DNA of 64,000 nucleotides from a virus: positions 43,510 to 107,509 of the IMG/VR virus record IMGVR_UViG_3300046471_000128, one strand, 5' to 3'. How positions within the stretch are numbered: position 1 is the first letter of the stretch; every line of letters begins with the position of its first letter. The translations under genes and the position numbers were made by a program. A model generated the notes under the pieces. That model saw only the letters and a list, made by a program, of their open reading frames with translations, searched no databases and was not told where the DNA came from. Below are positions 29,288-63,177 of this stretch, in pieces.

Positions 29288-29447
29288 GGTTCTCTCCTGG
29301 GTAGGTCGGTGCAGCGCTCGTTGCGCTGCGACAGAAGAGAGTTTGACGGGCAAGTCTTGGATCACGCGTGCTGCGCTGCAGGCTCTTTATAGCCCCGCCA
29401 CGGCCCCTGCAAGCAGCAGGTGCGCGTGAGCACACCCGCTGGCCCTG

Positions 29448-29612
29448 CTAGGGCGACCGATGGCGTCGACGCGCTTCGACACTGCGGCGGTGCTTTGCAC
29501 GGCTCAGACGACAGACGAATGAATCAAGGAACAACACGAGCAGGAAGATCAAGATAAACAGCGCACCGTGGATCGGAATCAGCCACAGCCCGCCTTCATA
29601 GAGCAGCTTCAT
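29448..29612 (-). CDS. Small membrane protein, 54 aa (below ORF track cutoff)
   Basis: MKLLYEGGLWLIPIHGALFILIFLLVLFL...; AGGGA SD; promoter-like element at 29642. Confidence 0.5.
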   Translation of the reverse strand: MKLLYEGGLWLIPIHGALFILIFLLVLFLDSFVCRLSRAKHRRSVEARRRHRSP

Positions 29613-29682
29613 GGCTGGTCCCTGTGAGTGGTCAAGTGATTATCGTATTGACGCACTCACGGACCCGGGCGCTAGGAAGTCA

Positions 29683-30072
29683 TCAGGCCAGGTGGATCAG
29701 GTGTCCAAGGGCCGGCATCAGCTTGGCGACGTGGTGCGAGAGGCTCATCACGGAGAACCCGTCATCGAAGCCGATCACCGCAAGGGCCAGCGCACCGAAG
29801 GCGGCGCCCCGCTCGATCAGCTTGCCGCCGCGGCCCGCCATCCACTGCAGCGCCGCGTTCGAGACGGTCGGCTGCTTGCGCTCCGGCGCATACAGATTAA
29901 CGTCTACCACCACCTCTTCAATGCGCGTCGCCGAGATCACCTCGATGCCATCGCGTTTATATGCCTGCACCATTGCCGCTACTACCCCTTCGATGGCCGC
30001 ATTGTCGGAGCTCGTCGACACCGTAAATAGCTCGCCTTCCTGGTCTACACACTCGAATGTGATCCTGCTCAT
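29683..30072 (-). CDS. Hypothetical protein with C-terminal hydrophobic segment
   Basis: 129 aa ORF with SD. Confidence 0.6.
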   Translation of the reverse strand: MSRITFECVDQEGELFTVSTSSDNAAIEGVVAAMVQAYKRDGIEVISATRIEEVVVDVNLYAPERKQPTVSNAALQWMAGRGGKLIERGAAFGALALAVIGFDDGFSVMSLSHHVAKLMPALGHLIHLA

Positions 30073-30549
30073 TTCCCTACGACTCCAGATTCTTATTGAT
30101 GAAGTGCCGATTGGATGCGGAGACGTTGGTGTCCCCTGCGCATGGGTCGAGATTGTCCATCAAACGTTTGCTGTCCAACAGATCAGGATTCAGCGTCATC
30201 TGCTAAGCAATCTTTTCCGATTCCTTATCTGGCAAGGGTTTTCACTGACATAAGTGTCAGATACATCGCTCCGCCATCGGTAAAAAATGTTAAAAAGGTA
30301 ACATTTTGTAGCCGGAGGGCAACACTTAGTCGGTAAAAAGACCGGGATACCCAATTTGGCAGTAGATATCCCTTGCGTCCGCGTTAGAAGTGGTGTCGGC
30401 GTGCGCGTCGCTCTTCAGCCCGTTGCGTCTGACGCGCCATGCGATACGCTTCCCGCGGCTCAGCCCCTGCCGAGCGTGCACCCAGATAGACCGCCCGCTC
30501 GATGAACGTGCGCAGCGTCCCGGCAGCGTAGTGTGTGGTTGCTGGCATC

Positions 30550-30726
30550 TCAGTGACCCCGCATCAGGTTGGCGATACGCTTGGGCATCGCACAGCGCTT
30601 CAGACGGGCGGCGCGCTTCAGACCACCCGTGAAGAGGTCGATCAAGAACCAGAATGCGGCACCTATCACGACCGCGGCGAGAATCACGAGCAGCACGGCA
30701 AAGAACCACTGCAACTGTTCGAACAT
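30550..30726 (-). CDS. Small membrane protein, 58 aa (below ORF track cutoff)
   Basis: MFEQLQWFFAVLLVILAAVVIGAAFWFLI...; GAGGTG SD; full class-II element at 30755. Confidence 0.6.
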   Translation of the reverse strand: MFEQLQWFFAVLLVILAAVVIGAAFWFLIDLFTGGLKRAARLKRCAMPKRIANLMRGH

Positions 30727-30885
30727 GGGACACCTCGTTGATGGGAGAGACTTCAGTCTCCCGACGAGGCTTCGGATGACACCCGGATACGTTTGCCCTC
30801 ACGTGGCCGTGTGATATCACCTGGCCGTGGTAACCCAGGCTGCTTTCGGTCCTCCGATACACTATCCGCACCGGGAGGGCCATCT

Positions 30886-31197
30886 ATGACGTTGCTCGAC
30901 TATCTGTCGATCGCCGCCACGCTTATAGGCTTTGCCATCTTTGTCACCCAACTTGTGCTGCTCGAACGCGAGCGCCGGATAACGCTTGCTCGATTGACCA
31001 AGTGGGCTTTGCTCCACGCATCGATTGTCGGCACCGGTCTGAGCGTCCTGATGCTCTCTAAATCATCTCCTTGGCTCATCGAAGATCCTGACGCCTCTTC
31101 TCCCGTGCGTCTAAACATGCTCTCCACGAAGGATTTCATCGCCTTTGCGGTCATCTATATCTTCGTCGCGTGGCGCTCGTTGAAGTCATTGGAGTAG
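30886..31197 (+). CDS. Small 3-TM membrane protein (moron-like)
   Basis: GGGAGG SD, three hydrophobic segments, opposite strand, lower GC. Confidence 0.55.
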   Translation: MTLLDYLSIAATLIGFAIFVTQLVLLERERRITLARLTKWALLHASIVGTGLSVLMLSKSSPWLIEDPDASSPVRLNMLSTKDFIAFAVIYIFVAWRSLKSLE

Positions 31198-31262
31198 GCA
31201 ATCCACGGCGTGCCACGGCAACGAGCACACAAAGAACAACGGGCACACGGCCCGTCATCGGA

Positions 31263-31547
31263 TCAACCGAGGTCGCTGAAGTCGTGCCCGGAGCAATCGA
31301 TGATCTCGACACGGCGCACCTGCGCAACCCGGCACTCACCGACGGGGATCATCATGAGGTGCGCCATCAGACGCCCGAACTGCGCTTCGGACAGAAAGAC
31401 AGGCGTCATGTGATACATCGAGCGGAGGTGCGCGTCGACAAAATCCTTCGACTCTTTGAGGCCCATCCCGGTGGTCGCACGGATCAGCTTGATGAGCGGA
31501 ATGCGATCGGTCGTGTTCGATTCGAGATAGGCTTTGATCTTCTTCAT
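31263..31547 (-). CDS. Ribosomal protein bL12 (L7/L12) C-terminal-domain-like protein
   Basis: RIPLIKLIRATTGMGLKESKDFVD matches bL12 K..VIK.VR..TGLGLKEAKDLVE. Confidence 0.7.
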   Translation of the reverse strand: MKKIKAYLESNTTDRIPLIKLIRATTGMGLKESKDFVDAHLRSMYHMTPVFLSEAQFGRLMAHLMMIPVGECRVAQVRRVEIIDCSGHDFSDLG

Positions 31548-31611
31548 GCTGCGCTCCCTGCGCTGGTTGGTGAGCTTCTATTTTCTCGACCAACACATGG
31601 CCCAGACTTGG

Positions 31612-31746
31612 ATACTTATAGGGCGCCAAGGGACTACTTTCCATAGGGCCACCGTCCGCGGCGGGCCAATCTTATACGTGGCAGGTGCCTATACTTATAC
31701 GTAGCACGGGCCAATCTTATAGAGCGCCAGCCGATACTTATACGAG
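31612..31746 (+). repeat. CTTATA-core repeat array with about 22-bp period
   Basis: CTTATA at 31615, 31671, 31694, 31716, 31737; alternating GGGCCAATCTTATA and ATACTTATACG. Confidence 0.85.
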
Positions 31747-32429
31747 CCACGGCGCGCCTTACGGGCCTGCAGCCACGGCAATTTGGCCAAGGATTTGAAC
31801 GGATTCTGGGAGGGTGGCACGCCGCGGCCCTTGCTGGGCTTGGCTTTGAGCGAACATGGCTCGGGTTGGCTTGGCGAGTTCCCATAAGAAAATTCTGTGG
31901 CGTGTCGATTGAAAGACAATGAAGCGCCGCAACAGCATGGAGCTCTTATAGAGCCGAAGCGTATGTCTTGTGTCTCCATACCGGATCATCTATGTGCATG
32001 AGTGTCGTTTAGGGCTTCCCTAGCCGTGATCTCTCTTACGGGATTGTCGTCCTCGGCGTTTCCGCCACAAGCATCATTCTTTCCTTTCTCTCTACTGGTA
32101 AAAGGGTTTGCGCCCGATCTGGTGGTTCGGACTCTAGCGTTGCGCTTCTCAGATCGCTTGGCATCGGGCTTGTTTGCGTTGCGGGTTGTCTGCTTACCTG
32201 TCGGGAAATGGAACGCTCGGCGCGGGCTTAGCGTTCTCTCTGGGCGGGCGTAATGGCGCTGCAATTGGGTCGAAAGTGCGGGCCTTACGGAAATACGCTA
32301 ATACTGTTTACTATCAATGACTTACGGGCGTTTCGATCCGTGGCTGTCTCGGGGACGAAATAACACCCTGTATTTCCTAGTTTTCGTGCCGTTATCATGC
32401 GTGCGAATCGGATAACTAGAGGAACGAGA

Positions 32430-32813
32430 ATGCTGAGGAAATGGGTGGTTTGCGGCGCGCTCGCGTGTGCGGCTAGCAGCGCGTCCGCTGCGAATTGGGT
32501 CGTCTTGGATCGACAACCGGATATCACGAAAAGCGTGGATCTCTCTACCGTTGTCGTCAACGGCATCTATCGCAAGGTGTGGGTGCGATCCGACTACACG
32601 AACGGGTTGAAGATGCCAGGCGGGCAGAACATTGGGCAAATATTCTTGCGCTACACGCTGCGCTGCTCGGATCGTGAGTATGCGTCAGGTCAGCTCATTG
32701 CCTATGACCGTGGTGGGCAAATGGTGCATTCGGAAGACGGCGACCCGAACAAGTTCGAGGAAGCGGTGCCGGGCTCATTTGGGGAAGCCATGCTTATCTC
32801 TCAATGCAAATGA
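32430..32813 (+). CDS. Secreted surface-adhesin E-like protein
   Basis: Signal peptide ending ASA; W...VD..T...KVW...C...PGS..E...C pattern. Confidence 0.65.
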   Translation: MLRKWVVCGALACAASSASAANWVVLDRQPDITKSVDLSTVVVNGIYRKVWVRSDYTNGLKMPGGQNIGQIFLRYTLRCSDREYASGQLIAYDRGGQMVHSEDGDPNKFEEAVPGSFGEAMLISQCK

Positions 32814-32826
32814 GACGGCACCGTCG

Positions 32827-33671: not shown

Positions 33672-33742
33672 GGGAGCCTCCGTGGAGTGTCAAACCCTTG
33701 AGCATAAAGGATTCCCGGTCGCTGGACCGGGAAGCTGGCGCG

Positions 33743-34042
33743 TTACCAGTCGTATTGCGGCAGGTCCGCGACCACGCTCTGATCACAGTCCATGCGCAAC
33801 CACTTGAGGTTGTGCCGGTTGCCCCACTCCATCACTTCGCGCAGGTCCGCCGGCAGGTTCAGTTCGTCGAGCAGGTCGCTCGGCTGCACCCAGAGGAACC
33901 AGCCGTGCTCATACGCGGCGACGATCGTCCACGGGCATTGAGCGTCGCCCTTGTCCAGTTGCTCCGCCGTCTCTCTCGTGACGTGGCACGTCGAGATCGC
34001 TGGGATGATGTCCACGTTGAAAATTTCTACGTTGCTGCTCAT
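33743..34042 (-). CDS. DUF5983-like protein
   Basis: STCH...YEHGWF...LP.DL...W...D.D...LP.YDW. Confidence 0.6.
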   Translation of the reverse strand: MSSNVEIFNVDIIPAISTCHVTRETAEQLDKGDAQCPWTIVAAYEHGWFLWVQPSDLLDELNLPADLREVMEWGNRHNLKWLRMDCDQSVVADLPQYDW

Positions 34043-34087
34043 GTGCTTCTCCAAGCTGCGCCCGGGCGCTCGGCCCGGGCTGTGGTG

Positions 34088-34603
34088 TTATTCGGGCAGG
34101 AGCTCGTCGCTCAGCATTTCGAGCAGCGTCTCGCTGTCATGGCACACCAGCGTGGTGATGTCGTCATCGACCGGCACGCCCGCGTCGCGCAGAATCTTGA
34201 GCACGGTTTGCGCGCGCGCAACGACGTCGGCATCGACCTCATCGTCATCGACGTGTCCGTCTTGCGTCTCGACCAGGCGACGCGCAAAGCACACGGCCCA
34301 CTCTTCGGGCGTGGCGCAGGTGTATTCCCACGGTGACGCACCTGCGGCGCCCATATCGCCCGACAGGTCGAAAACCCACTTGTGGTCAGGACCGCGCCCG
34401 ATGATGACCTTCGCGGCTGCGTAGACCATCGAGACGGACTCGACGCAGATCGCGTGTTTGTGGAACTGGTCGATCACGAACCCGTAGGCGTCGAGATACA
34501 GGTTGTCGAGCGTCTGGTTGGACTCTTGCACGAGCTGCTCGGCGGAGGGCTTGAACTCGGACGTGTCGACAGTCGCGAGGATTTCTTCGTAGGTGATGGA
34601 CAT
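34088..34603 (-). CDS. Acidic hypothetical early protein
   Basis: ORF directly downstream of class-II element 34638. Confidence 0.7.
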   Translation of the reverse strand: MSITYEEILATVDTSEFKPSAEQLVQESNQTLDNLYLDAYGFVIDQFHKHAICVESVSMVYAAAKVIIGRGPDHKWVFDLSGDMGAAGASPWEYTCATPEEWAVCFARRLVETQDGHVDDDEVDADVVARAQTVLKILRDAGVPVDDDITTLVCHDSETLLEMLSDELLPE

Positions 34604-34678
34604 GGTGTGTCTGGGTGGTTGTGGTTGCGATGAAGTCATTCTCCCGACCCGGGTGTGGCCCGGGCCCGGATCGGTTGA

Positions 34679-35071
34679 TCAGTGGGCGGACGTAAGCATT
34701 TCGGGAATGACCATCGGCAAGCTGGTCGAGCACGGCTCGTCGAGATTCAGAATGTCGAACGCTTCGGCGACAGGGCGGCCCGGGTGCGCGTAGGCGTTCA
34801 GCGTCGCGGTCACGCACGCTTCAAGGTGGTCGGCGTCACGGTAGTGCGGCGACACGCCCGCGTCGAAGGATTCGACGATCACCGTGTTCCCGTGCAGGAT
34901 CACCTTACCGACGCACGGGATCGGCCCGGTGTGGTCAGGATGCTCGAACTTCACGACCAGGACGACACCACCGTCGGCACGGGTGCGCAGACGGTAAAGG
35001 CGCGTGTGGTGCACGTTGCGGTAGGCGTGAGCATGGGCACGGCGCTGCTCGGGATTCAGGTTGAGGCTCAT
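34679..35071 (-). CDS. Hypothetical early protein (start MSLNLN)
   Basis: ORF downstream of class-II element 35103. Confidence 0.65.
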   Translation of the reverse strand: MSLNLNPEQRRAHAHAYRNVHHTRLYRLRTRADGGVVLVVKFEHPDHTGPIPCVGKVILHGNTVIVESFDAGVSPHYRDADHLEACVTATLNAYAHPGRPVAEAFDILNLDEPCSTSLPMVIPEMLTSAH

Positions 35072-35112
35072 GATGTTTCTCATGTGTCGTTTCGATAGAC
35101 ACAGTTTCCCGA

Positions 35113-35959
35113 TCACGCACTGGCGCGCTGTCGGATCGTTTGTGCGGTGTGCGGCACCGGGTAGCGGGCGACCAGCCACTCGGTGAACTGCTGTTGTTCG
35201 GCGAACCCCATCTCTGCTCGGACCGTTGCGTGCACATCGCACCAGAGCTTCGCCTGGTGGCCGATCCAGTAGACATAGGGCCGCGTGTGGTGCGTGCCGT
35301 AGCGCGCCATGTCCTTCGCAAGCTGCTCCGCCGGCGACCCTGCCCCGTGCGCGATACAGTAGGCGGCGTAGCGCGGCGTCGCGCCCTTGAACGGGCCGCG
35401 CGCGATCACCAGCAGACCTCGATCTGTTCCACCTGCTCGGGGTCGATGAGGACATGGCGCCCGGTGGGTGCGAGATCGGCATCAGGGCGGGGCTCCCACA
35501 GCTCCAGCTCCAGCAGCAGCCCGCCTTTGTGCACGCGCATTTCGCCGCCGTAGACCGAGCCGTGCACCTGCCGACCCGAGCGCAGCCACAGGTTCACGGT
35601 GTAGCCGTTCCCGTCGTTCTTCTCGTCGTTCGCGTCAGCGAGCGCGTAGGCAACGATCGTGCGCCCGCTCATCGTTGGCTATCCTTCACCGCTGCGTCGA
35701 GCTCGCGCACGGCGGCCGCCAGCCCGCTGCTGCCCTCTTCTATCGCGCCCACGACCTTAATCGCGGCGGCGCGCAGGTTGTCCAGTTTGTCGCCCTGCTT
35801 GTTCATCTTCAGGACCGCATCGAACGGTGCTTCGGAAAGCTGCGCTTGGATGCCCTGATTGTTGAACTCGTTCGAGAGGAACGAGAACATGTCGAATTCC
35901 CGGTCCTGCCCGTAGTTCGTGTCGGCGGGGCGAATGAGGATGGTGTGAATCTTGGGCAT
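35113..35959 (-). CDS. Three coupled small hypothetical genes (35669-35959, 35406-35672, 35113-35409)
   Basis: ATGA/GTGA overlaps; class-II element 35989 upstream. Confidence 0.65.
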
Positions 35960-36049
35960 GGTTGGTGTCCCGTGGTTGCGATGTGTTCAGTGTCCCGACC
36001 GATCGTTGGACCGGTCGCGGCTTTCGTTACGGGTGACTTATTCGCCCGC

Positions 36050-36590: not shown

Positions 36591-37832
36591 TCAATTGTCG
36601 TGATCGTCTGCTGGCGTGTGCACGTCGGTGCGTGGATGGTTTTCGAAAATCTGCTGCGGCGTGCCGCGGTAGTCGTCGAAGCGGCTAATCTCGCGACGGC
36701 AGTCCGAGCAGTAGAAGGCGCGCATCGGGCGGTTCCACCACTTCACGTCCTCACCGCGCGTCTCACATGCCGTGACGTTGCACTTGCCGCCGAACTGGCC
36801 CTTGCCGGTCTGATCGATGTGCCCATACGGATCGTCGGGCAGCTCGCGCGGCGCACGGAGAACGTCCGCGACCGCCTGGATCTGTTCCCGCGACGGCATG
36901 CGGCCGCGCGCACCGGGATAGACGCGATTCAAGGACACGCGCTGCGTCGTGTTCAGGGACGGTGCCGTCTTCATGAGACGGCGTTCTTTCTTGGTCAGGT
37001 GCATCGAGCGCTCCATCCCCGCCCGTCGAATCCGAGCGAGTCGTCAAAGTAGTTATCGTCCACGAAGCGCACAGCGGCGAACCACTGCGCGTCCGATTCG
37101 AGGTGGACCGTGTTGCCGAAGTCATCGACCGTCGTGCCGCTTAGCGCGATGGCGAACGGCATGGGTCGTGCGGAATTGAAGTGAATCAGGCGCATGGCGC
37201 GCTCCAGTTGATGTTGGAGTAGCCCTCGCCGAACATCGCGACCAGGCGGTCGTGTTGCTCTTCGTCGAGCGGCAGCTTCCAGCGCATCACCGCCGTCAGA
37301 TAAATCTCCTGCGCGTTCTCGGTCATTTCCTCGAAGCACGAACCCATGCTCGGGCGGAACTGGATTCGATGGAGCTGCACGCCGCACGACTCGCGGCGGC
37401 GCTGATTGCTCGGGCGCTCCCGCAACCAGCCGCCCATGTTGTAGTCCGACTCGAGGATCGAGTAGGCTTCGCAGATGTCAAAGCGATCCCAAGTCGCCAT
37501 CAGAGCGTCTCCCACTTCGTGTCGCCAACCTTCCGATACTGCATGGTCGTGCAGCCCGCGTGCCCTTCGGCCCAATCGAGCGGCTCGAACGCCGTTTCTT
37601 GAATAGCGTCGTGCAGGTCAACACAGCGGCCCGTGTAGTAGAGCTCGGCGTCGTCATCGAGCAACTGGAACTCGAAGTTGAAGCGCTCGCTGTGGAGCGT
37701 GATGAATTGGTCAACCGCGTCGCGGCGCCGCAGCGGATCGCGGATCGCAACCAGCGGCGAGTTGCGGTTGTCGTAGCGGCCCGTGCCCACCTGGCCGTCG
37801 GAGATGTGGTCCTTTGTGATGATCCACTGCAT
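36591..37832 (-). CDS. Four coupled small hypothetical genes (37500-37832, 37186-37500, 36995-37195, 36591-37016; the last has Cys pairs)
   Basis: Overlapping start and stop codons; class-II element 37866 upstream. Confidence 0.6.
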
Positions 37833-37898
37833 GTTGCGCTCCCTGTGCGCGTTGTCGATATGAAGATTGTCCCGACCGGGCATTGGCGCCCGGTTGGA

Positions 37899-39544
37899 TT
37901 AGTCACTGCCCCACTTGCGATCCTCTGCGATCTCCGCGAGGGCCATCTCCTGCACGCGATCAAGATCGGCTTGCAGGGCGCGACGCCGGCGACGGGCGCG
38001 CAGGATCATGCGCAAGATGTTCTTGGCGTGGGCCTCAGTCATATCGTCAACCGCGATGCGACGGCCGTCTTGACAGCGCCAGATTTCGTCGGGTGGCGTG
38101 CTCATGCCGGCACGCTGACGGGCCAATGCCATTCGCCCGAGGTCACCGCGGCGGGATTCGGGGCGTTCCGCTCATTCTTGAGAATGTCGCGCATCCTGTC
38201 GCCGAAGCTGAAAAGGCTATAGGCGCGGTTCGACAGGAAGTCGAAGTCGCTCTGGATCACGCGGGCGACGCCGATCTCCAACCCTGTCATGGCTTCGAAG
38301 TTTTCAGGACCGATCGCGTGCGCCAGCCCGTGAACGTCCAGTCTGTTGTAGCGGGCGTTCACGATTTGATCCAACTGCTCATCGGTGAAGAACGTGCCGA
38401 TCGCGCACACGCACGTCGAAATGGTTGGGGTGACCCGGGCGCTGCGATAGCGCCCGTGTGCCCGGGTGCCGATGCGGCCCGTCGAGAGGTCGTGCAGGAT
38501 CTTCTTGATGGCGTCGTGACGCGTGGCGGGCACGACGAAACCATTGACGCGGATCAGGTTGTAAGGACGGGTCATTGCTGTCTCATGTTCAGACTGTTCG
38601 ATGACGGGAGCACGTAGCCCCCGAGCTTTTCCATTGCCTTGTAGGCGTCGTCGGACGTGTGGAACCGCTCGACCGAGGTGAGGCGCCCGGGCGCGTCATC
38701 GACGCGCGTCCACAGCGTGTCGTGCCACAGGGGCATCGGGTTCTGCTGCTGGTGCCAGGTGCTCATGTGCCACCCGACTTGAACGACCAGCAGGACCAGC
38801 CCTTGCCGTCGGTCATCTGCACGATCACGCGGCCCGCATCGGCGCGCGTGAACGCGTAGCTCCGATGGTTGTGCCCGAGGTAGTGCAGCCGCGTCGCGCC
38901 CGCGTCGTCGGCTTCGACCTCGAACTCTTGGTGGAAGGTGGTCGAATAGCCACCCCATGCGTTGCGCGCGACGACGCGCGTCGGCTCGGTGAGCTTTCTC
39001 ATGCCGTCTCCTTCTGCTTGCCGCGCTTCTTGAGAGTGTCGGCGACCAGATCCCCGATCACGTCGAGGAAGCGCGCGCCCTGCTTCGGATCGAGTTGCGG
39101 CAGCCCGAAGATCCCGTCCGCGAGCAGGTCACCGTCGCGGTCGCGCGGCCCTTGGTTGAACGTGCGCTCAGCGAACACCGTGCGAATGCCCGATGCGACC
39201 AGCACCCGGCGCGCGAACTCGGCGAAGTTGTTGTCGGGCACATAGCCGAGCTCGAGCTCCATCTTCTTGAGCTTGCGGGCAATGCCGGTCATCACCTTCA
39301 TCGTGGCTTCGAGCTCGTCCATCTCGACGTAAGGACCGGGCTCGCGCATGGCGAACTTGGTGGCGTAGCTGTAGTCCCATTCACCGTTGACCGAGGTGCG
39401 GATCACAAGGTCGGTGGAGAAGAGATACCCTTGCGCGCTCTTGACCAGGCGGCGCAGCTGGATCTCGATGTGTGCGTAGCCCGGCGTGCTCTCACGAGCG
39501 CAGGCGTAGGCATACGGGGCATCGTTCTTAGCGGTCGGAAACAT
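37899..39544 (-). CDS. Five coupled hypothetical genes (38999-39544, 38763-39002, 38572-38766, 38102-38575, 37899-38105)
   Basis: ATGA overlaps throughout; class-II element 39576 upstream. Confidence 0.65.
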
Positions 39545-39910
39545 GGTCGTTTCTCTGTGTGGTTGCGATGAATTCATTTTCCCGAGCGCCCGTAGGCGCA
39601 TCGGTGGACTTATTTCGCATGGGTTTTACTGGCTGGTTGCGGTGAAGTAAATTGTGCTCGCGCCCCTTTGGCAAGCTAAGTTACCGCTTATTTATCCATT
39701 ATAGCCACGCGGAAAGATCGGGCGCGTGAAAACGTGCAAGATGTTGCGCGATTTGTGCAACTTTTTACCGGGGGTGCCGAACCCTTGCCTACCCGTAGAT
39801 AGACGGTCGGTGCTGTGGGAAGGGTAATTTTGGGCGCGGTGGCCCGCCCGAGGGCGCCGTGGCAGCGCGCGGGCACGAACAAAGCGGGCCGAAGCCCGCT
39901 TCGCTGACGG

Positions 39911-40996
39911 TCATTCAGCCGCCGTCGTTTCTTCCGCCGTCACTTCTTCGACGACCGGCTCTTCAACCGTCGGCTCTTCAACCGTCGGCTCTTCAACCGT
40001 CGGCTCGACGGTCGGTTCTTCCGCAACCGGTTCTTCGGGCAGCGGTTCGCTTGCCGGGTTCATCGCTTGCTGCGCCATCATGAGGAACAGCGAGTTCGGG
40101 TTGGGAACAAATTCGCCCTTGCCCGTCTGGACGATCATCTTCGTCTTCTCCATCACCGTCACCGTGTTGCGGCCCATCGCGCGCGCAGCGCTCGGGCTAT
40201 ACGGCTTGCTCAGCAGGTTCTTGTGGAGGTTCCCGTTGTCGCCCGTCTGGATCTTCCCGTCGGCGGCGAGCACGTCGAGGGCACGCTTGAAAATCTCGTT
40301 CGGCTTGTTCGTTTTGCCCGACAACCAGTCCATCAGGAGCGAGGCGCGATTCTTGACCTTGACGGACATCGCGTCGATCACCGCGAGCGTCTCGTCCTGC
40401 TTCGCTTTCAGCGCATCGCCCTCCAGCCCAGCGTCAGCGATCTCCAGCACGAGGTAGTCACCGAGCGACGCACCCAGGCGCGCTACGATGCGATCCGTCT
40501 TGTTCTGGTAGTGCGTGCGCGGGGCGCGGACCTTCTTCGCTGCTGCGGCGGTGGGCTCTGCTGCGCTCATTTCGGTCGCAAGCGCTTCTTCGGCGAGCAG
40601 ACGCTCTTTCTCGGCTTCTTCGTCCGTGACGCCCTCGTGGGCAGGCGCATCAGCGGGCACCAGCGCGTAGGCTTCTTGCACTTCGATGTTGGCGAGCGCA
40701 GCTTCGAGCGCTTCCCCGTGCGCTTCTTCGGACGGGAGTGCGGACTCGGCTGCGACTTCGAGCAACGGCGGCACGTCGAGAACTTCGACCGTCCCGGAGT
40801 CGAGCAGGACTTCTTCGCTCGATTCGACCAGTGCGGCGACCGACGCTTCGAACGTCTCGACCGGCGCTGCGCCCATGTTCGGCTCGCCCAGCACATCGAG
40901 GAGCGCTGCGAGTTCGGGGTCCATCGGGGCTGCTTCGCTCGCGCCCAGCATGTTGATGTTGAGGACGGCTGCGACTGCGTTTTTCTTGGCGTTCAT
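39911..40996 (-). CDS. 361-aa early protein with acidic N-terminal half, folded C-domain and EEPTV-repeat tail (start MNAKKN)
   Basis: CAGGAGAG SD, three upstream promoter-like elements, hairpin 39882-39901; 15-bp coding repeat near 39956-40005. Confidence 0.8.
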   Translation of the reverse strand: MNAKKNAVAAVLNINMLGASEAAPMDPELAALLDVLGEPNMGAAPVETFEASVAALVESSEEVLLDSGTVEVLDVPPLLEVAAESALPSEEAHGEALEAALANIEVQEAYALVPADAPAHEGVTDEEAEKERLLAEEALATEMSAAEPTAAAAKKVRAPRTHYQNKTDRIVARLGASLGDYLVLEIADAGLEGDALKAKQDETLAVIDAMSVKVKNRASLLMDWLSGKTNKPNEIFKRALDVLAADGKIQTGDNGNLHKNLLSKPYSPSAARAMGRNTVTVMEKTKMIVQTGKGEFVPNPNSLFLMMAQQAMNPASEPLPEEPVAEEPTVEPTVEEPTVEEPTVEEPVVEEVTAEETTAAE

Positions 40997-41294
40997 GATG
41001 CTCTCCTGAGTGAGATTGGGTAACGCGTTCATCGCGTCAGATTCAATTTTGTCGATCAGGTAGAGGCGCGTATCGCATGAGTCAGGATCGTTTCTCTGCC
41101 CGGTCTGGGTGTCGTGCACTGCATCGACTAGAGAAATTCTAGGGAGCGGGTTGTGGCGTAAATCCTGTGCGTTTGGATATGTGCTTGCTAGAAAGAAAGG
41201 TGCGCGCGCCCGCGCGAATAGCACCGGGCTTCTGGCTCGGGCCCGGAAAATAGAAAGGGCGCCCGAAGGCGCCCTGTCATGGGGTTGGAGGCTA

Positions 41295-42537: not shown

Positions 42538-42546
42538 GGTCGCTCC

Positions 42547-43098: not shown

Positions 43099-43175
43099 GG
43101 AATCAAGCTCCTCAAAAAGATTGCCCCGGCCGAAGCCGGGGCTCTTGTTATGTGACGGCCCCCTTCGCGCTGCTC

Positions 43176-43658
43176 TTAGAAGCGCGTGCTACCGATCGCT
43201 GCGACGCCGCCGATGCCCGCGACACCACCGACTGCCGTCGCACCGAAGGTGGCACCGACCGCGGCCGCGTTGTCGACCTTGCCGAAGCCGGTCGTGCCGT
43301 TCACGATCGAGTCGCCGTCCTTCCCCGGAGCGTTGCCGGTCGTGGTCCCGTAGCTGTGGATCTCCGACAGCTGCGAGGTTTGGCTGCCCACCGTCGCACC
43401 GTGCAGGTTGATGTTGCCGCCGACGCTCGCGCTGCCCTGCGAGAGTCCGTCGGTGTGCTGGAACGACGTGCCGTTGCCGATCACCTCGGTCGTGCTGATG
43501 GCGTTGCCCGTGCTGATGCTCGACGCGCTGCCGTTGATCGTGCCGCCGTAGGTGTTTGCGAAGCCGCCGACGACTGCGCCGCCGCCTACTGCTGCACCAC
43601 TTGCGAAAGCTGCCGATGCGCCCAATGCCAGGATTGCTGCGATGATGGTCTTTTTCAT
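43176..43658 (-). CDS. Secreted Gly/Ala/Ser/Thr-rich protein (fibre- or amyloid-like composition)
   Basis: Signal peptide MKKTIIAAILALGASAAFA; GAGGAG SD; terminator 43123-43143. Confidence 0.75.
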   Translation of the reverse strand: MKKTIIAAILALGASAAFASGAAVGGGAVVGGFANTYGGTINGSASSISTGNAISTTEVIGNGTSFQHTDGLSQGSASVGGNINLHGATVGSQTSQLSEIHSYGTTTGNAPGKDGDSIVNGTTGFGKVDNAAAVGATFGATAVGGVAGIGGVAAIGSTRF

Positions 43659-43812
43659 GTTTTAGAACTCCTCAATTTGTATGTCCGGAACCCGCCGGAC
43701 GCGGTTTGTTTAAACCTGCCCGGTATCGCTTCGTTTTCTGCGTTGCGTTACCGTATTAGTATTCTGACTTGCGATTCTTGGCGTCGTTTTGGATCATTGC
43801 GACGCGTTCAAA

Positions 43813-45053: not shown

Positions 45054-45741
45054 GCTTGGTTCCCCGTGTTTTTGCATTGATTTGATTGTCCCGACGCACT
45101 CTCGGCGGTGCGCTGGATCTCTTCGACCGTGTAACCGCACTTGCATGCGATGCTCGCTTTGGCGCTGCTGTGCACGACGTATTGGCGCCCGTTCGGCTGC
45201 GTGATGAGCCATTCGCCTTCGAGCGTGGGCGGCACTTGCACCACCTGAGCGGCTTCGAGAAAGCGCCGCTGCATCTCTTCGCCCTGTTTCCAACGCGTGC
45301 CGAGCGCCCTCTCGATCGCTCTTAGCGCATTACTCGCAGCCGCAGCGCCGTGCGCGCGCAGGTCGAGCGCGAGGTGGTAGTCGCCAATCGCCTGACGAAT
45401 GGCAGCCAACTGCTCGTCTGGGCGGTGCGAATTCGCGATTTCGGTGATCGCGAATATCGGCACTTCGATAGCTTTTTGCTTTTCAGGCAGAGGATTTATC
45501 AGTCTCTCAATATTTTTCAATCCAACTTCTCCCTCAATTCAAAGATCCAGCCAGGCTTATCAAGCTTTAGCTGCTCACATTTGGCTTTTAACCGGCTAAC
45601 CTGCGATTCGGTCCTAGCCCAATAAACTGTGGCTTTACTTAACTGTGTTACCTGGACCATATGATCCATGTCCATCGCCTTGAAACGCTTCTCCCTCGGG
45701 GCTCTACCGTAAATCCGGTAGTCCTTCAGACGCGTGCTCAT
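45050..45741 (-). CDS. Two hypothetical genes (45517-45741, lower GC; 45050-45520)
   Basis: SD; TATAAT promoter with operator-like site at 45757-45782. Confidence 0.55.
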
Positions 45742-47969: not shown

Positions 47970-48060
47970 AAGAACCTCACATTTAATAACTGTTCGCTTA
48001 CTTATTATAGCGCCCGCTCTTTGGCGGGCACGTTTTAGAACTAATGGGCGATCTTGCGTT

Positions 48061-48468: not shown

Positions 48469-48557
48469 GGGCTCTCCTGAATGGTCTCAATGCGACCGGG
48501 TTGCGATTGAGTCATTCTCCCGACCGCGCATTGGCGGTCGGGCGGATACAGCGGGTG

Positions 48558-50923: not shown

Positions 50924-51029
50924 GGAGAAATCCTCTAATTGTTTGATTTGAAAGGGACAACCGACACTTAGAAGTGTAGTCGTCCCTGTTTGGCAATTTG
51001 TAACCGGTGACTTATCGTAACCGGTTTTC

Positions 51030-53386: not shown

Positions 53387-53513
53387 GTGTTTCTCCGTGG
53401 TGAAAGATGTCATTGAGCTCGCCACCCGTCAGGTGTGCGACTTCAATGGCTACCTCTCGATTGGGTCGGGCATCGCGCCCGACCTGTATTCTCGAATCAG
53501 ACTTCTGGCCCGA

Positions 53514-58276: not shown

Positions 58277-58290
58277 GTTCCTTCCTGTGG

Positions 58291-58722: not shown

Positions 58723-58790
58723 AGTGTTTCGCTCCTCTTCAAATCGTGTGAACTGTGTGGCTGCTGCACGCAGCCCGTCCAAAACTCCAC

Positions 58791-60752
58791 TCATGCGCTC
58801 AGCGCTCCCGTGACTGTGGACACCCCGCCCTCCTTCGTGACTGTGCAGATCTGGTCGACCCAATCTGCGAGACTTTCGTGGCTGATGATGAGCACCGTGC
58901 CCTTCTCACGCGCCTTCTGCTCCAGCACGGTCATGAGGCGCTCAAGGCCCGCACCGTCCAGCGCGTCGTCGATCTCGTCACCGACCCAGAGGGACATTGG
59001 CTTGGTCGCGCGGGACGCAACCAAGTCCTGCAGGGCGAGCATGGTCGCGAGCCGCACTTTGCGCTTCTCACCGCCCGACAGACCCCCGAAGGTTTTCGCC
59101 CCGGTGGCGTTCTCGACCTCGATGTTGAACTTCTCGCGGAGCTCTCCCTTCGTGGTGGTTGCAATGGTTGACCAGACGGCGCTGATGTTCCCGTCCGACA
59201 GGGCCGACAGATAGTCCGAGGTCCGGTCATTCAGGAACGGCGTCACGGTGTCGAGAATCTGCGCACGCACGCCACCGGGGCTGAACACCTTGACGACGCT
59301 CTCCGCGACCTCGACCGCCTTGATGAGCTCTTCGGCGCCCTTCTTGATCGAGGTGATCTGCTCCTCGATCTTGATGATCTGCTCGCGACCCATGTCGATC
59401 GCGGACTGGTGCGGGTTGAGCGCGGTGAGCGCCTTGTCCGCTTCAGCCTTCACGGCGTCGTGGTTCGCTTTCTGCGTCTGAATCAGCCCCTTGAGGCGCT
59501 GACACTCCTGCAATGAGCGCTGAACCTCGGCGAGCCGCGCGCTGGTGGCCGACACATCGGGAATCGTCGCGGTGAAGTCCTCGACAGCTTTGCCGGCGGC
59601 GGCCGCCTGGTTCTGCAGGTCGGTTACTTCAGCCTGAATCTGCCCCGCTTCAGCGGCCAGCTCCTTTGCGCGCTTGGTCTGGTGCGCTACGAAGTCGTTG
59701 AGCTCCTCCGGCGTGTGGGGCTTGCCGCACTCAGTGCAGGGCTTCGCCATCGCCTCGGGCGCGTTCTTGATCCCTTCGACTGCGGCGAGCATCTGCTTGC
59801 GCACCCGCTCGAAGTCATTCAGCCGGACCCGGTGTGCGGTGCCGGCCGCGCTCTCTGCCTTGATCAGCTCGTTGCGCTGCGCGTTGAACTTGCCGTGCTC
59901 CGCGAGGACGGCTACGAGCGAATCGCGCTCCTTCCCGAGCTCTGCCTCGTTGAGCGCCTTGTATGCTTCGAAGTTCGTCCGCAGCGCATCGGCGAAGCCG
60001 GTTGCCCGCGCCATCCATCCCGCCTGCTGGTTCGGGCGATCCGCCTCGAATGTGGCGTGGTTCGTCTCTGCCTGCGCCAGCGACACCTTCCAGTTGACGA
60101 TGTGCCCTTCCAGGTTCGCGATCTGCTTGGTGGACCCATCGACCGCTGCCACCGCGTCGTCGCGCTTGCGGCACGCGATGGTGTAGGCCGATTCGAGGCG
60201 CTCGATGCCTGATGCCTTCTCGATCAGCATCTTGAGCGGCTTGTCGGTCATCTTCGGCAGGTCGGGCATGTCCTCCTGACCCGCGTAGATGGCCGACTTG
60301 AACACGTCGTAGTTGCAGCCTACGATCTCGGTGATCTGGTTCTGGATCTCCTTCTCGGTGCCCTTCTCGATGCGATCGCCGACTGCTCCGTTGTGGAAAT
60401 TCTCGGCCGGGTTCCAGAGCGTGATCGTGGTCGCGTTCTTGAACTGCTTGTCCTTGCGGTGGCGGCGGATCTCATAGATCGACTCGCCGTCCTGCAGGAT
60501 CGCGGACACATAGGTGCCCTTCTTCGCCTTCTCGTTGACGATGGAGTCGCCCGACTCGCCCCGCGCGGTGGTGCCGAAGAGTGCCCAGCACAGCGCGTCG
60601 GCGATCGACGACTTGCCCGCGCCGTTCGACACGGTGGATGTGTCGTCCTTGTTGACCCCTTGAATCAGGATCAGCCCGCGGTCCTTGAGCGCCAGGTCGC
60701 CCGAGTCGCCGAGCGTCAGGAAGTTGACCGCCCTCAGTTTCAGAAAATCCAT
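58791..60752 (-). CDS. SbcC/Rad50-like recombination ATPase
   Basis: NGAGKS, zinc hook CTEC, LSGGE, GDE, ISH. Confidence 0.92.
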   Translation of the reverse strand: MDFLKLRAVNFLTLGDSGDLALKDRGLILIQGVNKDDTSTVSNGAGKSSIADALCWALFGTTARGESGDSIVNEKAKKGTYVSAILQDGESIYEIRRHRKDKQFKNATTITLWNPAENFHNGAVGDRIEKGTEKEIQNQITEIVGCNYDVFKSAIYAGQEDMPDLPKMTDKPLKMLIEKASGIERLESAYTIACRKRDDAVAAVDGSTKQIANLEGHIVNWKVSLAQAETNHATFEADRPNQQAGWMARATGFADALRTNFEAYKALNEAELGKERDSLVAVLAEHGKFNAQRNELIKAESAAGTAHRVRLNDFERVRKQMLAAVEGIKNAPEAMAKPCTECGKPHTPEELNDFVAHQTKRAKELAAEAGQIQAEVTDLQNQAAAAGKAVEDFTATIPDVSATSARLAEVQRSLQECQRLKGLIQTQKANHDAVKAEADKALTALNPHQSAIDMGREQIIKIEEQITSIKKGAEELIKAVEVAESVVKVFSPGGVRAQILDTVTPFLNDRTSDYLSALSDGNISAVWSTIATTTKGELREKFNIEVENATGAKTFGGLSGGEKRKVRLATMLALQDLVASRATKPMSLWVGDEIDDALDGAGLERLMTVLEQKAREKGTVLIISHESLADWVDQICTVTKEGGVSTVTGALSA

Positions 60753-60938
60753 TTATTCCTCGATCCAGTAAGCCGTCACGTCGGCCGGGTTGATGTGGGT
60801 GGCGCGATAGCCTTCCTGCTTGCCGATTTTGATGCGTCGAAGGTCGCCCTCGAAGTTGTGGATGACCTCGATCGTTTCCGCAACGACGCGGAGCGGCGTC
60901 GGGTCGTGTCGAATGTAGAACGTGCCCTTAACCATCAC
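60753..60938 (-). CDS. Small hypothetical protein
   Basis: Coupled between the SbcD-like and SbcC-like genes. Confidence 0.55.
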   Translation of the reverse strand: MMVKGTFYIRHDPTPLRVVAETIEVIHNFEGDLRRIKIGKQEGYRATHINPADVTAYWIEE

Positions 60939-62002
60939 GCCGCCTCCGCAAGCACCGCGATGGCGCCCTGCGCCACGAGCTCGGCATGCTCGAACCCGGC
61001 GCCCTTGATGTAGTCGGTCACTTGAACCTCAACCGATGCGCCCGCTTTTACTGTGCTCGTCGCTGCTCGGCCCGTCGATGCGGTTTTGACGACGTTCACG
61101 TTCACGCCGAGCGCGCCCTGCTTCATCAGGCCGTCGCGAATCGCGCTGACCTCAGACGGCTTGGCGTTGCTGACTTTGACGCGGACGTAATTGCCATCGC
61201 AGCGCAGCGTGACCTCGGTCGGGTCCATGCCGGCGTCGATGTCGACGAACTGCGGCGCGTGGGTGCTGTGCCACTTGACCTCGCTCTCGCTCACGACCAG
61301 GAAGCCCGCCTTGCTGCCGACGTCGCCCCATGTCTGGTGCGTCAAAGCGCCGATCGACCAGACCTTGCCGGGCGTGATTTCCTTATGGTTATGGTAGTGG
61401 CCGCTGAATACGCGCTTGAAGCCGAGCTCTGCGAGCCAGTCACCGGACAGCCCGTGGTCGGGCAAGCCCTCGATCACGCCGTCGATCGGCGCGTGGATGA
61501 TCAGATCGAACTCGCTCGGGTCGCCGTGCCCTGCGACCAGCAGGTTGTCGCGCTCCAGCGTGAGCGCCGCTTTCAAGTCCTCGACCCGCTCGATCCAGGG
61601 CACCTGCACCACCTTGTGCTCGTGGTGGATCTGCGTCTCGTGATCGACCTCAACCCACTCGCTCGCCATCGCCTCGACCGAATTGCCGACCTTGTGCGAG
61701 TGTTTGAATTCGAGATCGTGATTCCCCGGCAGCAGGCGGAACTTCACGCCGTGTGTCCGGTAGATGTGCTCGAACCGGGCGCGCGTCGGGTTCAGCACGC
61801 TCGGCTCGATCGAACCGCGAACGTGGAACAGGTCGCCCCCGTGATACACCGTGTCACCGCCCGCTTTCTTCGTCTCGACGGCGCACCGCTCGATCTCGTC
61901 GAGGATCATGGTGAGGCGCGTGTTGACCATATCCTCGCCCGTTGACGAGAAGGCTGACCACGAATGGCAATGTGTGTCTGACAAAAGCCCGTATGGCTTC
62001 AT
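60935..62002 (-). CDS. SbcD/Mre11-like metallophosphoesterase nuclease
   Basis: SDTH, GDLFH, GNHD, GHYH. Confidence 0.9.
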   Translation of the reverse strand: MKPYGLLSDTHCHSWSAFSSTGEDMVNTRLTMILDEIERCAVETKKAGGDTVYHGGDLFHVRGSIEPSVLNPTRARFEHIYRTHGVKFRLLPGNHDLEFKHSHKVGNSVEAMASEWVEVDHETQIHHEHKVVQVPWIERVEDLKAALTLERDNLLVAGHGDPSEFDLIIHAPIDGVIEGLPDHGLSGDWLAELGFKRVFSGHYHNHKEITPGKVWSIGALTHQTWGDVGSKAGFLVVSESEVKWHSTHAPQFVDIDAGMDPTEVTLRCDGNYVRVKVSNAKPSEVSAIRDGLMKQGALGVNVNVVKTASTGRAATSTVKAGASVEVQVTDYIKGAGFEHAELVAQGAIAVLAEAA

Positions 62003-62101
62003 GATTCCCCCGTTTGATTGCCCATATGAGCATTGTCACTGCTGATGTTTGGATACTGAACAGGGGCACTTGGCCCCTGTTTCTACTGCTGTGCGACGCG
62101 C

Positions 62102-62641
62102 TTATGCAGACGCGGCGATGTCCTTGCTCGTGAACGGGTAACCGAAGGCGGGGTCGCGCGCGGCGTTCGGGTTGACCTTCACTTCGAGCGTCGTGGCTTT
62201 GGGCGCCGGTTCGGCATGGCCGAGGTCTTCGTCGACCTGCTCCTGGTATTCGTCGAGCGACCGCGAAAGCGACCGCAGCATGGCCTCGATCTGACGCTCG
62301 GCCTGGCGAATCGAGGCGTAGGCCGAATAGACCATCGAGGCGGAGACAGCGAGCAGGAAGGCGGCAAAGAAGTGCGCATGCGAGGCGAGCGTCAAGACCA
62401 TCACCCAGCGCGAGACGTGAAATAGCAGGAACGCTGCGCGGCCCAGGCCCTTGCCGGGCACGTCGATCGACGACAACCCGCCATTGAGGAGGGTCGACAC
62501 GATGACGCTGAACGCCGAGAAGCCGATCACGAATACGAGCGCGTTCTCGATGCCGACCGCTTTCTGTTGGAAGGCGTAGAACAGCGCGAACCACAGCACA
62601 AAGTGCGTGAAGAACTTCGAGAGGAACGACAAGAATTTCAT
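62102..62641 (-). CDS. Multi-pass membrane protein
   Basis: About 4 hydrophobic segments. Confidence 0.65.
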   Translation of the reverse strand: MKFLSFLSKFFTHFVLWFALFYAFQQKAVGIENALVFVIGFSAFSVIVSTLLNGGLSSIDVPGKGLGRAAFLLFHVSRWVMVLTLASHAHFFAAFLLAVSASMVYSAYASIRQAERQIEAMLRSLSRSLDEYQEQVDEDLGHAEPAPKATTLEVKVNPNAARDPAFGYPFTSKDIAASA

Positions 62642-62715
62642 AGGGGTAACTCCGAGTGGGTTGAAGGGTGAAACGGGTTTTTATCGCTGCACGGTCAATT
62701 ATAGTAACGCGTCAC

Positions 62716-63123
62716 TTATATGTAGCGATAAAAAATGTGATTGCCGATGGAAATCGCTCGCTCGACGTGGTGCCGCCATGCGGGCTTGACGCGCGTCGCG
62801 TGGTAGAAGGTCGCGCCGTGCGTGAGGTCGATCTTCTTGCCCGTGAGGGTGTTGTAGGCGATCTTGCTCGCGACCATCCAGGCGAAGTCATCCTTCGGCA
62901 CGCCGGCCGCCTTGAGCCGCCAGCCCTGGCGGTCGCGGGCGAGCTTGCTGGTGGTCCAGCTGAACTGATGCGGCGCGGTGACCACTTCACAGACCTTGGC
63001 GGGGTCATCCCCTGCCCGGTTCATGGTGACGGCGGCGACCGCATATTGCCCGAGGATGGGCTCGCCGCGAGCCTCGTTATAGACGTTGAGGCTTAAGCAC
63101 AAGAGTGCGCTGGCTAGAATCAT
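62716..63123 (-). CDS. SleB/CwlJ-like cell wall hydrolase (Hydrolase_2)
   Basis: NVYNEARGE..GQ.AVA.V..NR...QFSW...GATFYH...P.W...IGNH.FY. Confidence 0.9.
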   Translation of the reverse strand: MILASALLCLSLNVYNEARGEPILGQYAVAAVTMNRAGDDPAKVCEVVTAPHQFSWTTSKLARDRQGWRLKAAGVPKDDFAWMVASKIAYNTLTGKKIDLTHGATFYHATRVKPAWRHHVERAISIGNHIFYRYI

Positions 63124-63177
63124 TGATTGGCCCCTTATTTCAGAACAGTCAATTGTAACCCATAGGTCACGGCTGAC

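Follow-up and report, generated by a model that had tools for sequence, protein, structure and literature searches.

Organization of the phage genome and the class-A element

The window analyzed here is a 64,000-nucleotide stretch covering positions 43,510 to 107,509 of the 107,509-bp IMG/VR record IMGVR_UViG_3300046471_000128 (G000:C1:43510-107509), and our subject is a set of short, recurrent elements on its - strand, which we call class A. The G000 record is 62% GC, has a 127-bp terminal repeat and carries nearly all of its genes on the - strand. In the order of transcription, the genome starts with SbcCD-like, ribonucleotide reductase (RNR) and ThyX-like genes, passes through a series of small genes of unknown function at 49-29 kb of the window, continues with ParB-like genes, terminase, and head and tail genes, and finishes with a block of replication genes (ligase, CobT/CobS-like, DnaE, SSB, exonuclease and RecA-like). 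The most elaborate class-A sites, which have two boxes, precede small genes that lack a family assignment.

A search using only the core of the element (TCGRGA.A..) returned nine intergenic - strand sites, and features both upstream and downstream of the core were common to all nine. Both boxes are present in 9/9, the first base of a box is only G or T, and position 6 of the hexamer is T in 9/9, a base that this first search did not impose. The full consensus reads A-TCCR-N7-KCCD-N8-TCGGGAnAAT-N6-ATCGCAACC, where TCCR is the distal box, KCCD the proximal box, and GAnAAT, the last six nucleotides of the 10-mer, the hexamer. G000 has 11 full sites, 10 of which are inside the window:

48499..48547 (-), full class-A site, box-to-10-mer 48547-48514: ATCCG-N7-GCCA-N8-TCGGGAGAAT-N6-ATCGCAACC; 9-bp hairpin centred on GCCA; upstream of gene 48468-48061
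45070..45118 (-), full class-A site, box-to-10-mer 45118-45085: ATCCA-N7-GCCG-N8-TCGGGACAAT; upstream of gene ~45050-44490
43746..43794 (-), full class-A site with a divergent 10-mer, box-to-10-mer 43794-43761: ATCCA-N7-GCCA-N8-AAGTCAGAAT; 102 nt upstream of gene 43658-43176
39561..39609 (-), full class-A site, box-to-10-mer 39609-39576: GTCCA-N7-GCCT-N8-TCGGGAAAAT-N6-ATCGCAACC; hairpin; upstream of gene 39544-38999
37851..37899 (-), full class-A site, box-to-10-mer 37899-37866: ATCCA-N7-GCCA-N8-TCGGGACAAT-N6-ATCGACAAC; 7-bp hairpin with loop GCCAAT; upstream of gene 37832-37500
35974..36022 (-), full class-A site, box-to-10-mer 36022-35989: AGCCG-N7-TCCA-N8-TCGGGACACT-N6-ATCGCAACC; hairpin; upstream of gene 35959-35669
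35088..35136 (-), full class-A site, box-to-10-mer 35136-35103: ATCCG-N7-GCCA-N8-TCGGGAAACT-N6-ATCGAAAC; upstream of gene ~35068-34679
34623..34671 (-), full class-A site, box-to-10-mer 34671-34638: ATCCG-N7-GCCA-N8-TCGGGAGAAT-N6-ATCGCAACC; hairpin; upstream of gene 34603-34088
31565..31613 (-), full class-A site, box-to-10-mer 31613-31580: ATCCA-N7-GCCA-N8-TCGAGAAAAT; upstream of gene 31547-31263
30740..30788 (-), full class-A site, box-to-10-mer 30788-30755: ATCCG-N7-TCCG-N8-TCGGGAGACT; upstream of gene ~30726-30326

Outside the window there is an eleventh, at genome 22303-22271, in front of a hypothetical gene and the DNA ligase gene. The first-pass annotation of this DNA had reported 11 full elements with an invariant N7 and N8 spacing, and this held for 10 of the 11; the three that it quoted in full are exact, and the eight positions that it gave as starts are really 3' ends, about 32 nt off. 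We rejected the remaining candidate, at 41215, as a full element, since its sequence belongs to a GC hairpin that adjoins a terminator-like site. The annotation had also seen a word of the ATCGCAACC type downstream of several sites, and we found ATCGCAACC or a close variant 6 nt 3' of the hexamer in 6/10 window sites.

The class-A motif is non-random and conserved

The two-box element is far more frequent than chance would allow and is confined to one strand. A degenerate form of it (KCC-N8-KCC-N14-A.A[AC]T) has 11 matches on the - strand of G000, 1 on the + strand and 0 in the reversed sequence, against a chance expectation of 0.43 ± 0.6 (Markov-1 simulations). Three related records, G001-G003, were gathered by a motif scan of the collection and a protein-based search, and the same degenerate pattern divides between their main and other strands at 18:0 (G001), 6:1 (G002) and 5:1 (G003). 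A position weight matrix trained on G001-G003 alone scored all 11 G000 sites above 16 bits, and no position scored that high in three control sequences. The motif, its spacing and its bias to one strand and to intergenic DNA are conserved in all four records. From site to site, the N7, N8 and N6 stretches vary around retained box words and spacings, and class-A copies are thus not recent duplications. Two KCC boxes without the hexamer are not enriched (19 matches vs 16 on the other strand); the boxes are informative only within the composite element.

G001 (IMGVR_UViG_3300046694_000296) is 215,656 bp long and appears to join two related, non-identical ~108 kb genomes in one contig. Its motif sites, and a word-purged island described below, each occur twice, ~108-110 kb apart, with differing sequences. 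G002 and G003 are provirus calls of 104 kb and 93 kb, respectively. The collection scan used TCGGGANAMT-N6-ATCGCAACC and returned three loci, one of which belongs to a true relative (L012, in G001); the other two look like chance matches and have no further class-A features.

A single box at a fixed distance from the hexamer forms the core

We scanned G000 for GCCA-Nx-A.AAT with x from 6 to 21 and found 13 matches at x = 13 and 0-2 at each other value of x. The same single peak at x = 13 is present in all four records (13, 13, 6 and 4 matches, with a background of 0-3). Because this peak holds for sites with and without a distal box, which is missing from 7/13 of the G000 matches, the core element is GCCA-N12-hexamer. 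The distal box, TCGGG and ATCGCAACC would then mark a stronger or separate sub-class. The first-pass annotation had listed 12 sites with only the proximal box, and 10 of them fit a loose proximal-only pattern, KCCD-N12-nAnA[AC]T, whereas those at 29642 and 49517 fit loosely at best. The sites that fit are:

63152..63173 (-), proximal-only: GCCG-N12-TACAAT
62032..62053 (-), proximal-only: TCCA-N12-GACAAT; upstream of Mre11/SbcD-like gene
53488..53509 (-), proximal-only: GCCA-N12-GAGAAT; upstream of ThyX-like gene
50973..50994 (-), proximal-only: GCCA-N12-TACACT; class-B palindrome (see below) immediately upstream
48004..48025 (-), proximal-only: GCCA-N12-TATAAT; upstream of RNase T-like exonuclease gene 47969-47394
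41136..41157 (-), proximal-only: GCCA-N12-TAGAAT; upstream of gene 40996-39911
41046..41067 (-), proximal-only: GCCT-N12-CAAAAT; upstream of gene 40996-39911
39651..39672 (-), proximal-only: GCCA-N12-CACAAT then CCGCAACC; half-site GTAACTTA in the place of the distal box
36594..36615 (-), proximal-only: GCCA-N12-GACAAT then TGTCGCAACC; upstream of gene 36562-36050
29340..29361 (-), proximal-only, weak: TCCA-N12-CAAACT

Individually, the proximal-only sites are weak: with full sites removed, the loose pattern has 22 matches genome-wide vs 17.6 ± 3.4 expected, which is barely enriched, but ~13 of these 22 lie in non-coding DNA (17% of the genome). Across the genome, proximal-only sites are found in front of DnaE, the CobS/sigma-like operon, the ThyX-like gene, the RNase T-like exonuclease and the 361-aa gene 40996-39911.

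Class-A elements have the geometry of promoters without a -35 box

Recognition of a sigma70-type -10 depends above all on A2 and T6. Both are invariant in the class-A hexamer (A2 in 11/11 and T6 in 11/11 full sites), while position 1 is G, not T, in 10/11. A constant 6 nt separate the hexamer from the A that is conserved in ATCGCAACC. With the hexamer placed at -12..-7, this A would become +1, and the two boxes would come to lie at -28..-25 (proximal) and -39..-36 (distal). Position -1, just before the predicted +1 A, is pyrimidine-rich, and a start codon follows the 10-mer by 19-45 nt in 9/10 window sites. A TTGACA-like -35 hexamer 16-18 bp upstream of the -10 was found at none of the 10 window sites, and the TG extension is missing from them as well. 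The first-pass description of a non-canonical class that lacks a -35 box, ends in a -10-like six nucleotides and carries two same-sense KCCD boxes 11 bp apart near -38 and -27 was thus borne out. Sigma70-consensus promoters number 1 at 29-49 kb (4.8 expected from shuffles) and 4 at 49-64 kb (2.4 expected), and they are not enriched anywhere in 29-64 kb.

In its normal position, sigma region 4 needs a 16-18-bp spacer. At every site, exactly 12 bp separate the end of the proximal box from the hexamer, which places the box beyond the normal reach of region 4 and argues for a separate factor or a remodelled sigma. The promoter reading is well supported by anatomy, statistics and conservation, and a phage-encoded factor probably directs host RNA polymerase to about twenty class-A sites. 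We infer promoter function, the start site, and both the need for a factor and its identity; of the possible arrangements, we tentatively prefer, at somewhat less than an even chance, that these are early/middle phage promoters without a -35 box that are used by the host multisubunit RNA polymerase together with a phage factor bound at the box or boxes.

On this preferred reading, the GAnAAT hexamer would serve as the -10 element (-12..-7), with the host primary sigma as its most likely reader, and transcription would start 7 nt 3' of the hexamer, at the conserved A of ATCGCAACC. The mRNAs of class-A genes would consequently share a CA-rich 5' leader. A phage-encoded factor would contact the KCCD box (usually GCCA) at -28..-25 in place of the -35 contact, and in the strong sub-class the same factor may also sit on the second same-sense box (A-TCCR), one helical turn up at -39..-36. 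The two kinds of site would divide their labour, with proximal-only sites driving replication and nucleotide-metabolism genes (DnaE, the CobS/sigma-like operon, ThyX and the exonuclease) and two-box sites with TCGGGA driving the block of small unknown genes.

Several observations weigh against this arrangement. No MotA, AsiA or CII family match was found in the genome (PF09114 and PF09010 in six frames at E <= 1; PF05269), a result that leaves room for remote structural analogues, and Pfam and PHROG scans of ~40 early-region open reading frames (ORFs) returned no helix-turn-helix, activator, anti-sigma or other recognizable DNA-binding family. The genome also encodes a sigma-like protein that might itself read the sites. 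The hexamer starts with G and not the usual T, a plain -10 does not explain the conserved TCGGG before it, and 7/11 G000 sites can form a GCCA-centred hairpin that is superfluous to this arrangement.

The box word is purged from a conserved island that encodes a candidate regulator

The first-pass annotation had treated KCCD as a meaningful word with one reader. In agreement with this, the promoter boxes and a purged island in the window share exactly the same degeneracy. At 27231-28535, both strands together hold 1 KCCD/HGGM word vs 56 ± 7 expected from the dinucleotide content of the island itself, and the genome mean is 82 ± 14 per 1.3 kb. GCCC and TCCC stay common inside the island. In the promoters, 39 sites from the four records have only G or T as the first base of a box; the fourth base of the distal box is G at 17 sites, A at 16, T at 6 and C at none, and that of the proximal box is A at 28, G at 10, T at 1 and C at none, against a background C frequency of ~21% at this position. 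The idea of one reader for KCCD gains real support from this shared degeneracy.

Exactly one purged island is present per related genome copy. The two islands of G001 span 1,521 and 1,475 bp with zero words each, and G002 and G003 have one strongly depleted zone each. The conserved island is 1.3-1.5 kb long, and every copy of it holds an orthologue of the same gene, a candidate for the trans-acting factor:

27753-28424 (-), 223-aa gene inside the purged island, candidate trans factor

The predicted structure of the 223-aa protein (predicted local distance difference test (pLDDT) 80, predicted template modelling score (pTM) 0.78) has an N-terminal helical domain and a winged-helix-like C-terminal half. 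In a wide structural search (VIA), MarR, PadR and ArsR winged-helix regulators fill nearly all of the top 50 places, at middling Z scores of 5.5-6.9. Foldseek against the PDB gave nothing at E <= 0.001, and tblastn against phages and plasmids gave no match. The model suggests that the protein is probably a winged-helix DNA-binding regulator, which makes it a lead as a candidate reader of the boxes. Paralogy between the 223-aa protein and the 361-aa product of 39911-40996 is unsupported (BLASTP E 0.05; hhalign probability 1%, E 0.048, 149 colinear columns).

A second form of depletion affects the + strand, where zones at ~34042-35090 and ~40242-41242 have zero GCC[AGT] per kb vs a genome mean of 21.6 ± 7.4. 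These zones cover genes directly 3' of class-A sites (34603-34088, ~35068-34679 and 40996-39911), whose mRNA sense is without HGGC. Conceivably, though this is unlikely, KCCD is a lineage-specific word that is read singly by a factor of the phage, which could be a protein or a modification system; it would build the boxes of ~20 promoters and be of such consequence that both strands of a conserved regulator gene have been purged of it in all genome copies, and several class-A-driven genes would be purged of template-strand GCCD. If that were true, the promoters would represent one side of a genome-wide control or marking system, based on words and not yet described, that times phage expression.

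A sigma-like protein, a second motif class and a possible cascade

G000 encodes a 215-aa sigma-like ORF at genome 8081-8728 (-), outside the window (locus L009), between a CobS-like gene and DnaE. Its hidden Markov model (HMM) signals are weak but consistent (Pfam Sigma70_r2 E 0.03; PHROG sigma family 8e-4), and a PDB profile search places region 2 of FliA, SigA and SigB at the top. An AlphaFold model (pLDDT 76) has sigma2-like and sigma4-like helical domains with an acidic linker between them, and the top 50 Foldseek matches are all sigma chains. The N-terminal domain superimposes on sigma domain 2 with Z 8-9.2 and a root-mean-square deviation of 1.6-2.7 Å over ~70 residues at 20-22% identity. 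Homologues of the protein are labelled sigma24 by JGI (the Joint Genome Institute), and all relatives with the class-A motif have the gene. The single Sigma70_r4_2 match elsewhere, at genome 28971-29027, extends over 19 positions within a metallophosphoesterase ORF, and we judged it spurious.

Dyad enrichment in non-coding DNA revealed a second motif, class B, with the sequence (r)aTAAGTSAC-N3-GTTAC-TATAAT. It consists of a quasi-palindrome abutting a near-perfect -10, with no -35 element, and it occurs at 14 places on the - strand and 7 on the + strand, including:

window 62718, 53967, 51014, 12625, 8441 and 1609 (-), class B
window 22744, 49494, 52355, 57554 and 25391 (+), class B
genome 38342, 26111, 22728, 12680, 10051 and 3393, class B

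Class B precedes head, tail and tail-fibre genes and some metabolic genes, as well as the sole clear + strand gene, helicase 22789-24519. It is conserved in G001, where its -10 part is TATACT. Class B, or its half-site GTAACTTA, takes the place of the distal box at the class-A sites at 50994, 39672 and genome 10028, and a degenerate class-B element lies upstream of the island gene together with a host-type promoter, TTGCAC-N17-TACTAT. Class B looks like a late or operator-controlled class, and it is reminiscent of the late promoters of phage P1. Because the sigma-like gene lies among the replication genes behind a class-A site, a cascade running from class A to the sigma and from the sigma to class B is plausible, which reduces, without abolishing, the chance that class A is read by the sigma.

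Relatives and neighbouring genes

Named phages are all distant from G000. Its DnaE shares 42-46% identity with the DnaE proteins of Rhizobium phages (B1VFA, RHEph10), Stenotrophomonas phage BUCTxx99 and Pseudomonas phage nickie, and BUCTxx99, at 44% DnaE identity, is syntenic with G000. A megablast of 20 kb of G000 against phages found no close annotated relative. Since two G000 proteins have homologues in Paraburkholderia and Burkholderia assemblies, the host probably belongs to the Burkholderiaceae; assemblies with homologues include those of Paraburkholderia sp. RCC_158 and Burkholderia sp. MSMB1072. The clade is one of uncultivated ~105-kb Burkholderiaceae siphophages, distant kin of Nickievirus/RHEph10/SSU5-like phages. 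Searches of G000 returned no tRNA genes and no Rfam family reaching its gathering score.

Several neighbouring features deserve mention. The 94-aa product of 31263-31547 (-), directly 3' of a full class-A site, matches the C-terminal domain of ribosomal protein L7/L12 (PF00542, E 1.7e-7). A Tad2-like (Thoeris anti-defence 2) domain protein at window 21705-22067 (-) (PF11195, E 1.5e-11) is encoded in the same phage as a TIR-domain protein at window 24522-25304 (-) (PF13676, E 3e-8). Two strong intrinsic-terminator-like hairpins with T-tracts lie within the early region, at window 43123-43142 and 41256-41275 (-), which suggests that the early block is cut into several transcription units by such hairpins.

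Alternative readers of the class-A element

A different reader would be the 215-aa sigma-like protein, which, with host core polymerase, could recognize class A directly, its domain 2 on TCGGGAnAAT or on the hexamer alone and its C-terminal domain on a KCCD box. We consider this possible but less than likely. The weak but consistent HMM signals and the structural similarity to sigma domain 2 point to a sigma-family fold, and the gene accompanies the motif in every motif-bearing relative. A precedent is also set by gp36 of phiEco32: this phage sigma has two domains, recognizes a -10-like element and, in an unusual geometry, touches -37G (PMC12276001). The class-A distal box would lie at -39..-36. 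Yet the sigma-like gene itself lies behind a proximal-only class-A site (genome 10028), so that class-A activity would precede its own reader, and, to judge from T4, SPO1 and phiEco32, late promoters are the more usual targets of a sigma encoded among replication genes. The class-B motif before structural genes is a more natural target for it, and the core box of class A, 12 bp from the hexamer, is too near for a sigma domain 4 on the flap. BUCTxx99 has a hypothetical gene in the syntenic position of the sigma-like gene (the sequences were not compared) and lacks both motif classes; this comparison is uninformative, neither linking the sigma-like gene to class A nor unlinking them. We think it quite improbable that the RNA polymerase holoenzyme of the host needs no partner at these sites and treats them as constitutive early promoters, with boxes that are host-specific upstream contacts or functionless. 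Early phage genes do normally need promoters that the host alone can use, and the hexamer keeps A2 and T6, the positions most critical for sigma70. But the -35 hexamer and the TG extension are both missing, the conservation of two boxes at one spacing in diverged genomes implies that something reads them, a box 12 bp above the -10 is out of range for sigma region 4, and the motif is missing from the related BUCTxx99.

The elements might instead act through structure, as intercistronic RNA hairpins (for processing, 3'-end protection or attenuation) or as hairpin or cruciform promoters of the N4 kind, which we regard as very improbable. Stems of 6-10 bp that present the GCCA box as the loop, with z < -2 vs shuffles, are found at the same 7/11 G000 sites and at ~1/3 of the 39 sites; stem sequences differ between sites, which indicates compensatory change, and because the preceding genes stop shortly before the elements, the hairpin would be part of any read-through RNA. 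Against this, two thirds of the 39 sites, including most sites in relatives, have no stem, the pairing register varies, no U-tract follows the stem and Rfam gave no match, while promoter geometry, more than a stem, accounts for A2, T6, the box words and the constant 6 nt between the hexamer and the conserved A. A T7-type RNA polymerase had no match in our search, nor did one of the T7/N4 type, although the control genomes of the search likewise gave no match. The hairpin is perhaps an accessory feature for insulation or for 3'-end protection of read-through RNA. The first-pass annotation had proposed yet another mechanism, an epigenetic infection sensor in which KCCD boxes are read only when modified by the phage, so that the promoters fire from virion DNA and are silent in the prophage. 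KCCD is clearly under selection, with 0-1 copies per island vs 56 expected and C never at the fourth box position in 39 sites, and T4 cytosine modification is known to alter the activity of a few MotA boxes (PMC2988021). The purge, however, would be explained equally well by avoidance of protein binding sites, and the sequence itself holds no sign of a modification. C5, N4/N6 and D12 methyltransferase families were not detected in the genome, a result that leaves other enzyme classes possible, and the packaging-adjacent operon proposed as the writer (18176-22726) contains two ParB_N domains together with ABC ATPase, SprT-like and Tad2-like domains only, with no recognizable modifying enzyme. 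A similar ParB/ATPase module lies upstream of terminase in BUCTxx99, a phage without the class-A motif. As a tyrosine integrase was not found in a search of G000, a prophage state is also not established for this record. The link to modification and the sensor built on it were left unsupported, and of all the explanations considered here this one has the slightest chance of being correct.

Comparison with known phage promoter systems

We returned to the preferred reading, a phage factor that brings host polymerase to the boxes, and compared the class-A element with phage systems that work in related ways. In T4, AsiA remodels sigma region 4 and lets MotA bind its box. The T4 MotA box lies 12 ± 1 bp from the sigma70 -10 element (PMC2988021), and the proximal box of class A exactly 12 bp from the hexamer, so that the analogy with T4 middle promoters drawn by the first-pass annotation is apt. 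Like class A, T4 middle promoters have no -35, a phage-specific box 12 bp above the -10, dozens of copies before prereplicative genes, and a -10 that is conserved more strictly than the box (PMC2988021). Class A departs from them in its box, which is KCCD, mostly GCCA, and not (a/t)(a/t)(a/t)TGCTTtA; in its second same-sense box a helical turn up, its G-initial hexamer with the preceding TCGGG, and its conserved initial transcribed sequence; and in that MotA (PF09114) and AsiA (PF09010) homologues are undetected in the phage genome that carries it.

The CII repeat of lambda and P22 straddles the -35. Like class A, these promoters combine a direct 4-bp repeat, about one turn apart around -38/-27, with a weak -10, and a phage activator replaces the -35 contact; the lambda CII target is a TTGC-N6-TTGC direct repeat (PMC2629481). 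In class A, by contrast, the period is 11 bp and not 10, the word is another one, and the proximal box alone suffices at many sites. The CII family (PF05269) is not matched in G000, and class A is predicted to drive lytic/early genes and not lysogeny genes.

Other systems are more distant. The sigma of phiEco32 is likewise small and divergent, with sigma2-like and sigma4-like parts, no canonical -35 and an upstream contact near -37 (PMC12276001), but its consensus is AATGTA centred at -11.5, whereas class A has GAnAAT and an extra box at -28..-25. A subset of class-A sites shares with N4 early promoters a short GC stem and a small conserved loop just upstream of the presumed start. N4 has a 5-7-bp stem and a 3-nt loop, whereas class-A stems occur in ~1/3 of sites with 4-6-nt loops and a variable register; a gene for a giant virion polymerase is not present, the largest ORFs being tail proteins. 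Promoters of extracytoplasmic function (ECF) sigmas pair an AAC-type -35 with a CGT/GTC-type -10 at 16-18 bp, and a similar spacing can be drawn as ATCCR-N18-GTCGGGA in full sites only. Proximal-only sites contain neither part, and a hexamer acting as the -10 agrees better than an ECF-type -10 with the constant 6 nt that lead to the conserved A. The class-A element is outside the MotA, CII and N4 families and probably outside the ECF family as well, and it would work most like MotA and CII.

Implications

T4 and a small number of other model phages capture the host polymerase by replacing the -35 contact with a phage-specific box. To our knowledge, only a handful of such systems have been defined, all of them in enterobacterial or Bacillus phages. 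Class A is predicted to be a clean and statistically solid further case, with an unusual architecture of two boxes one helical turn apart and a conserved transcript start. Such short, modular promoters could serve as orthogonal parts for Burkholderia/Paraburkholderia. The identity of the box word with the purged word provides a testable link from promoter recognition to genome-wide word avoidance. Together, class A, class B and a divergent sigma in one genome would make up a compact three-tier transcription programme.

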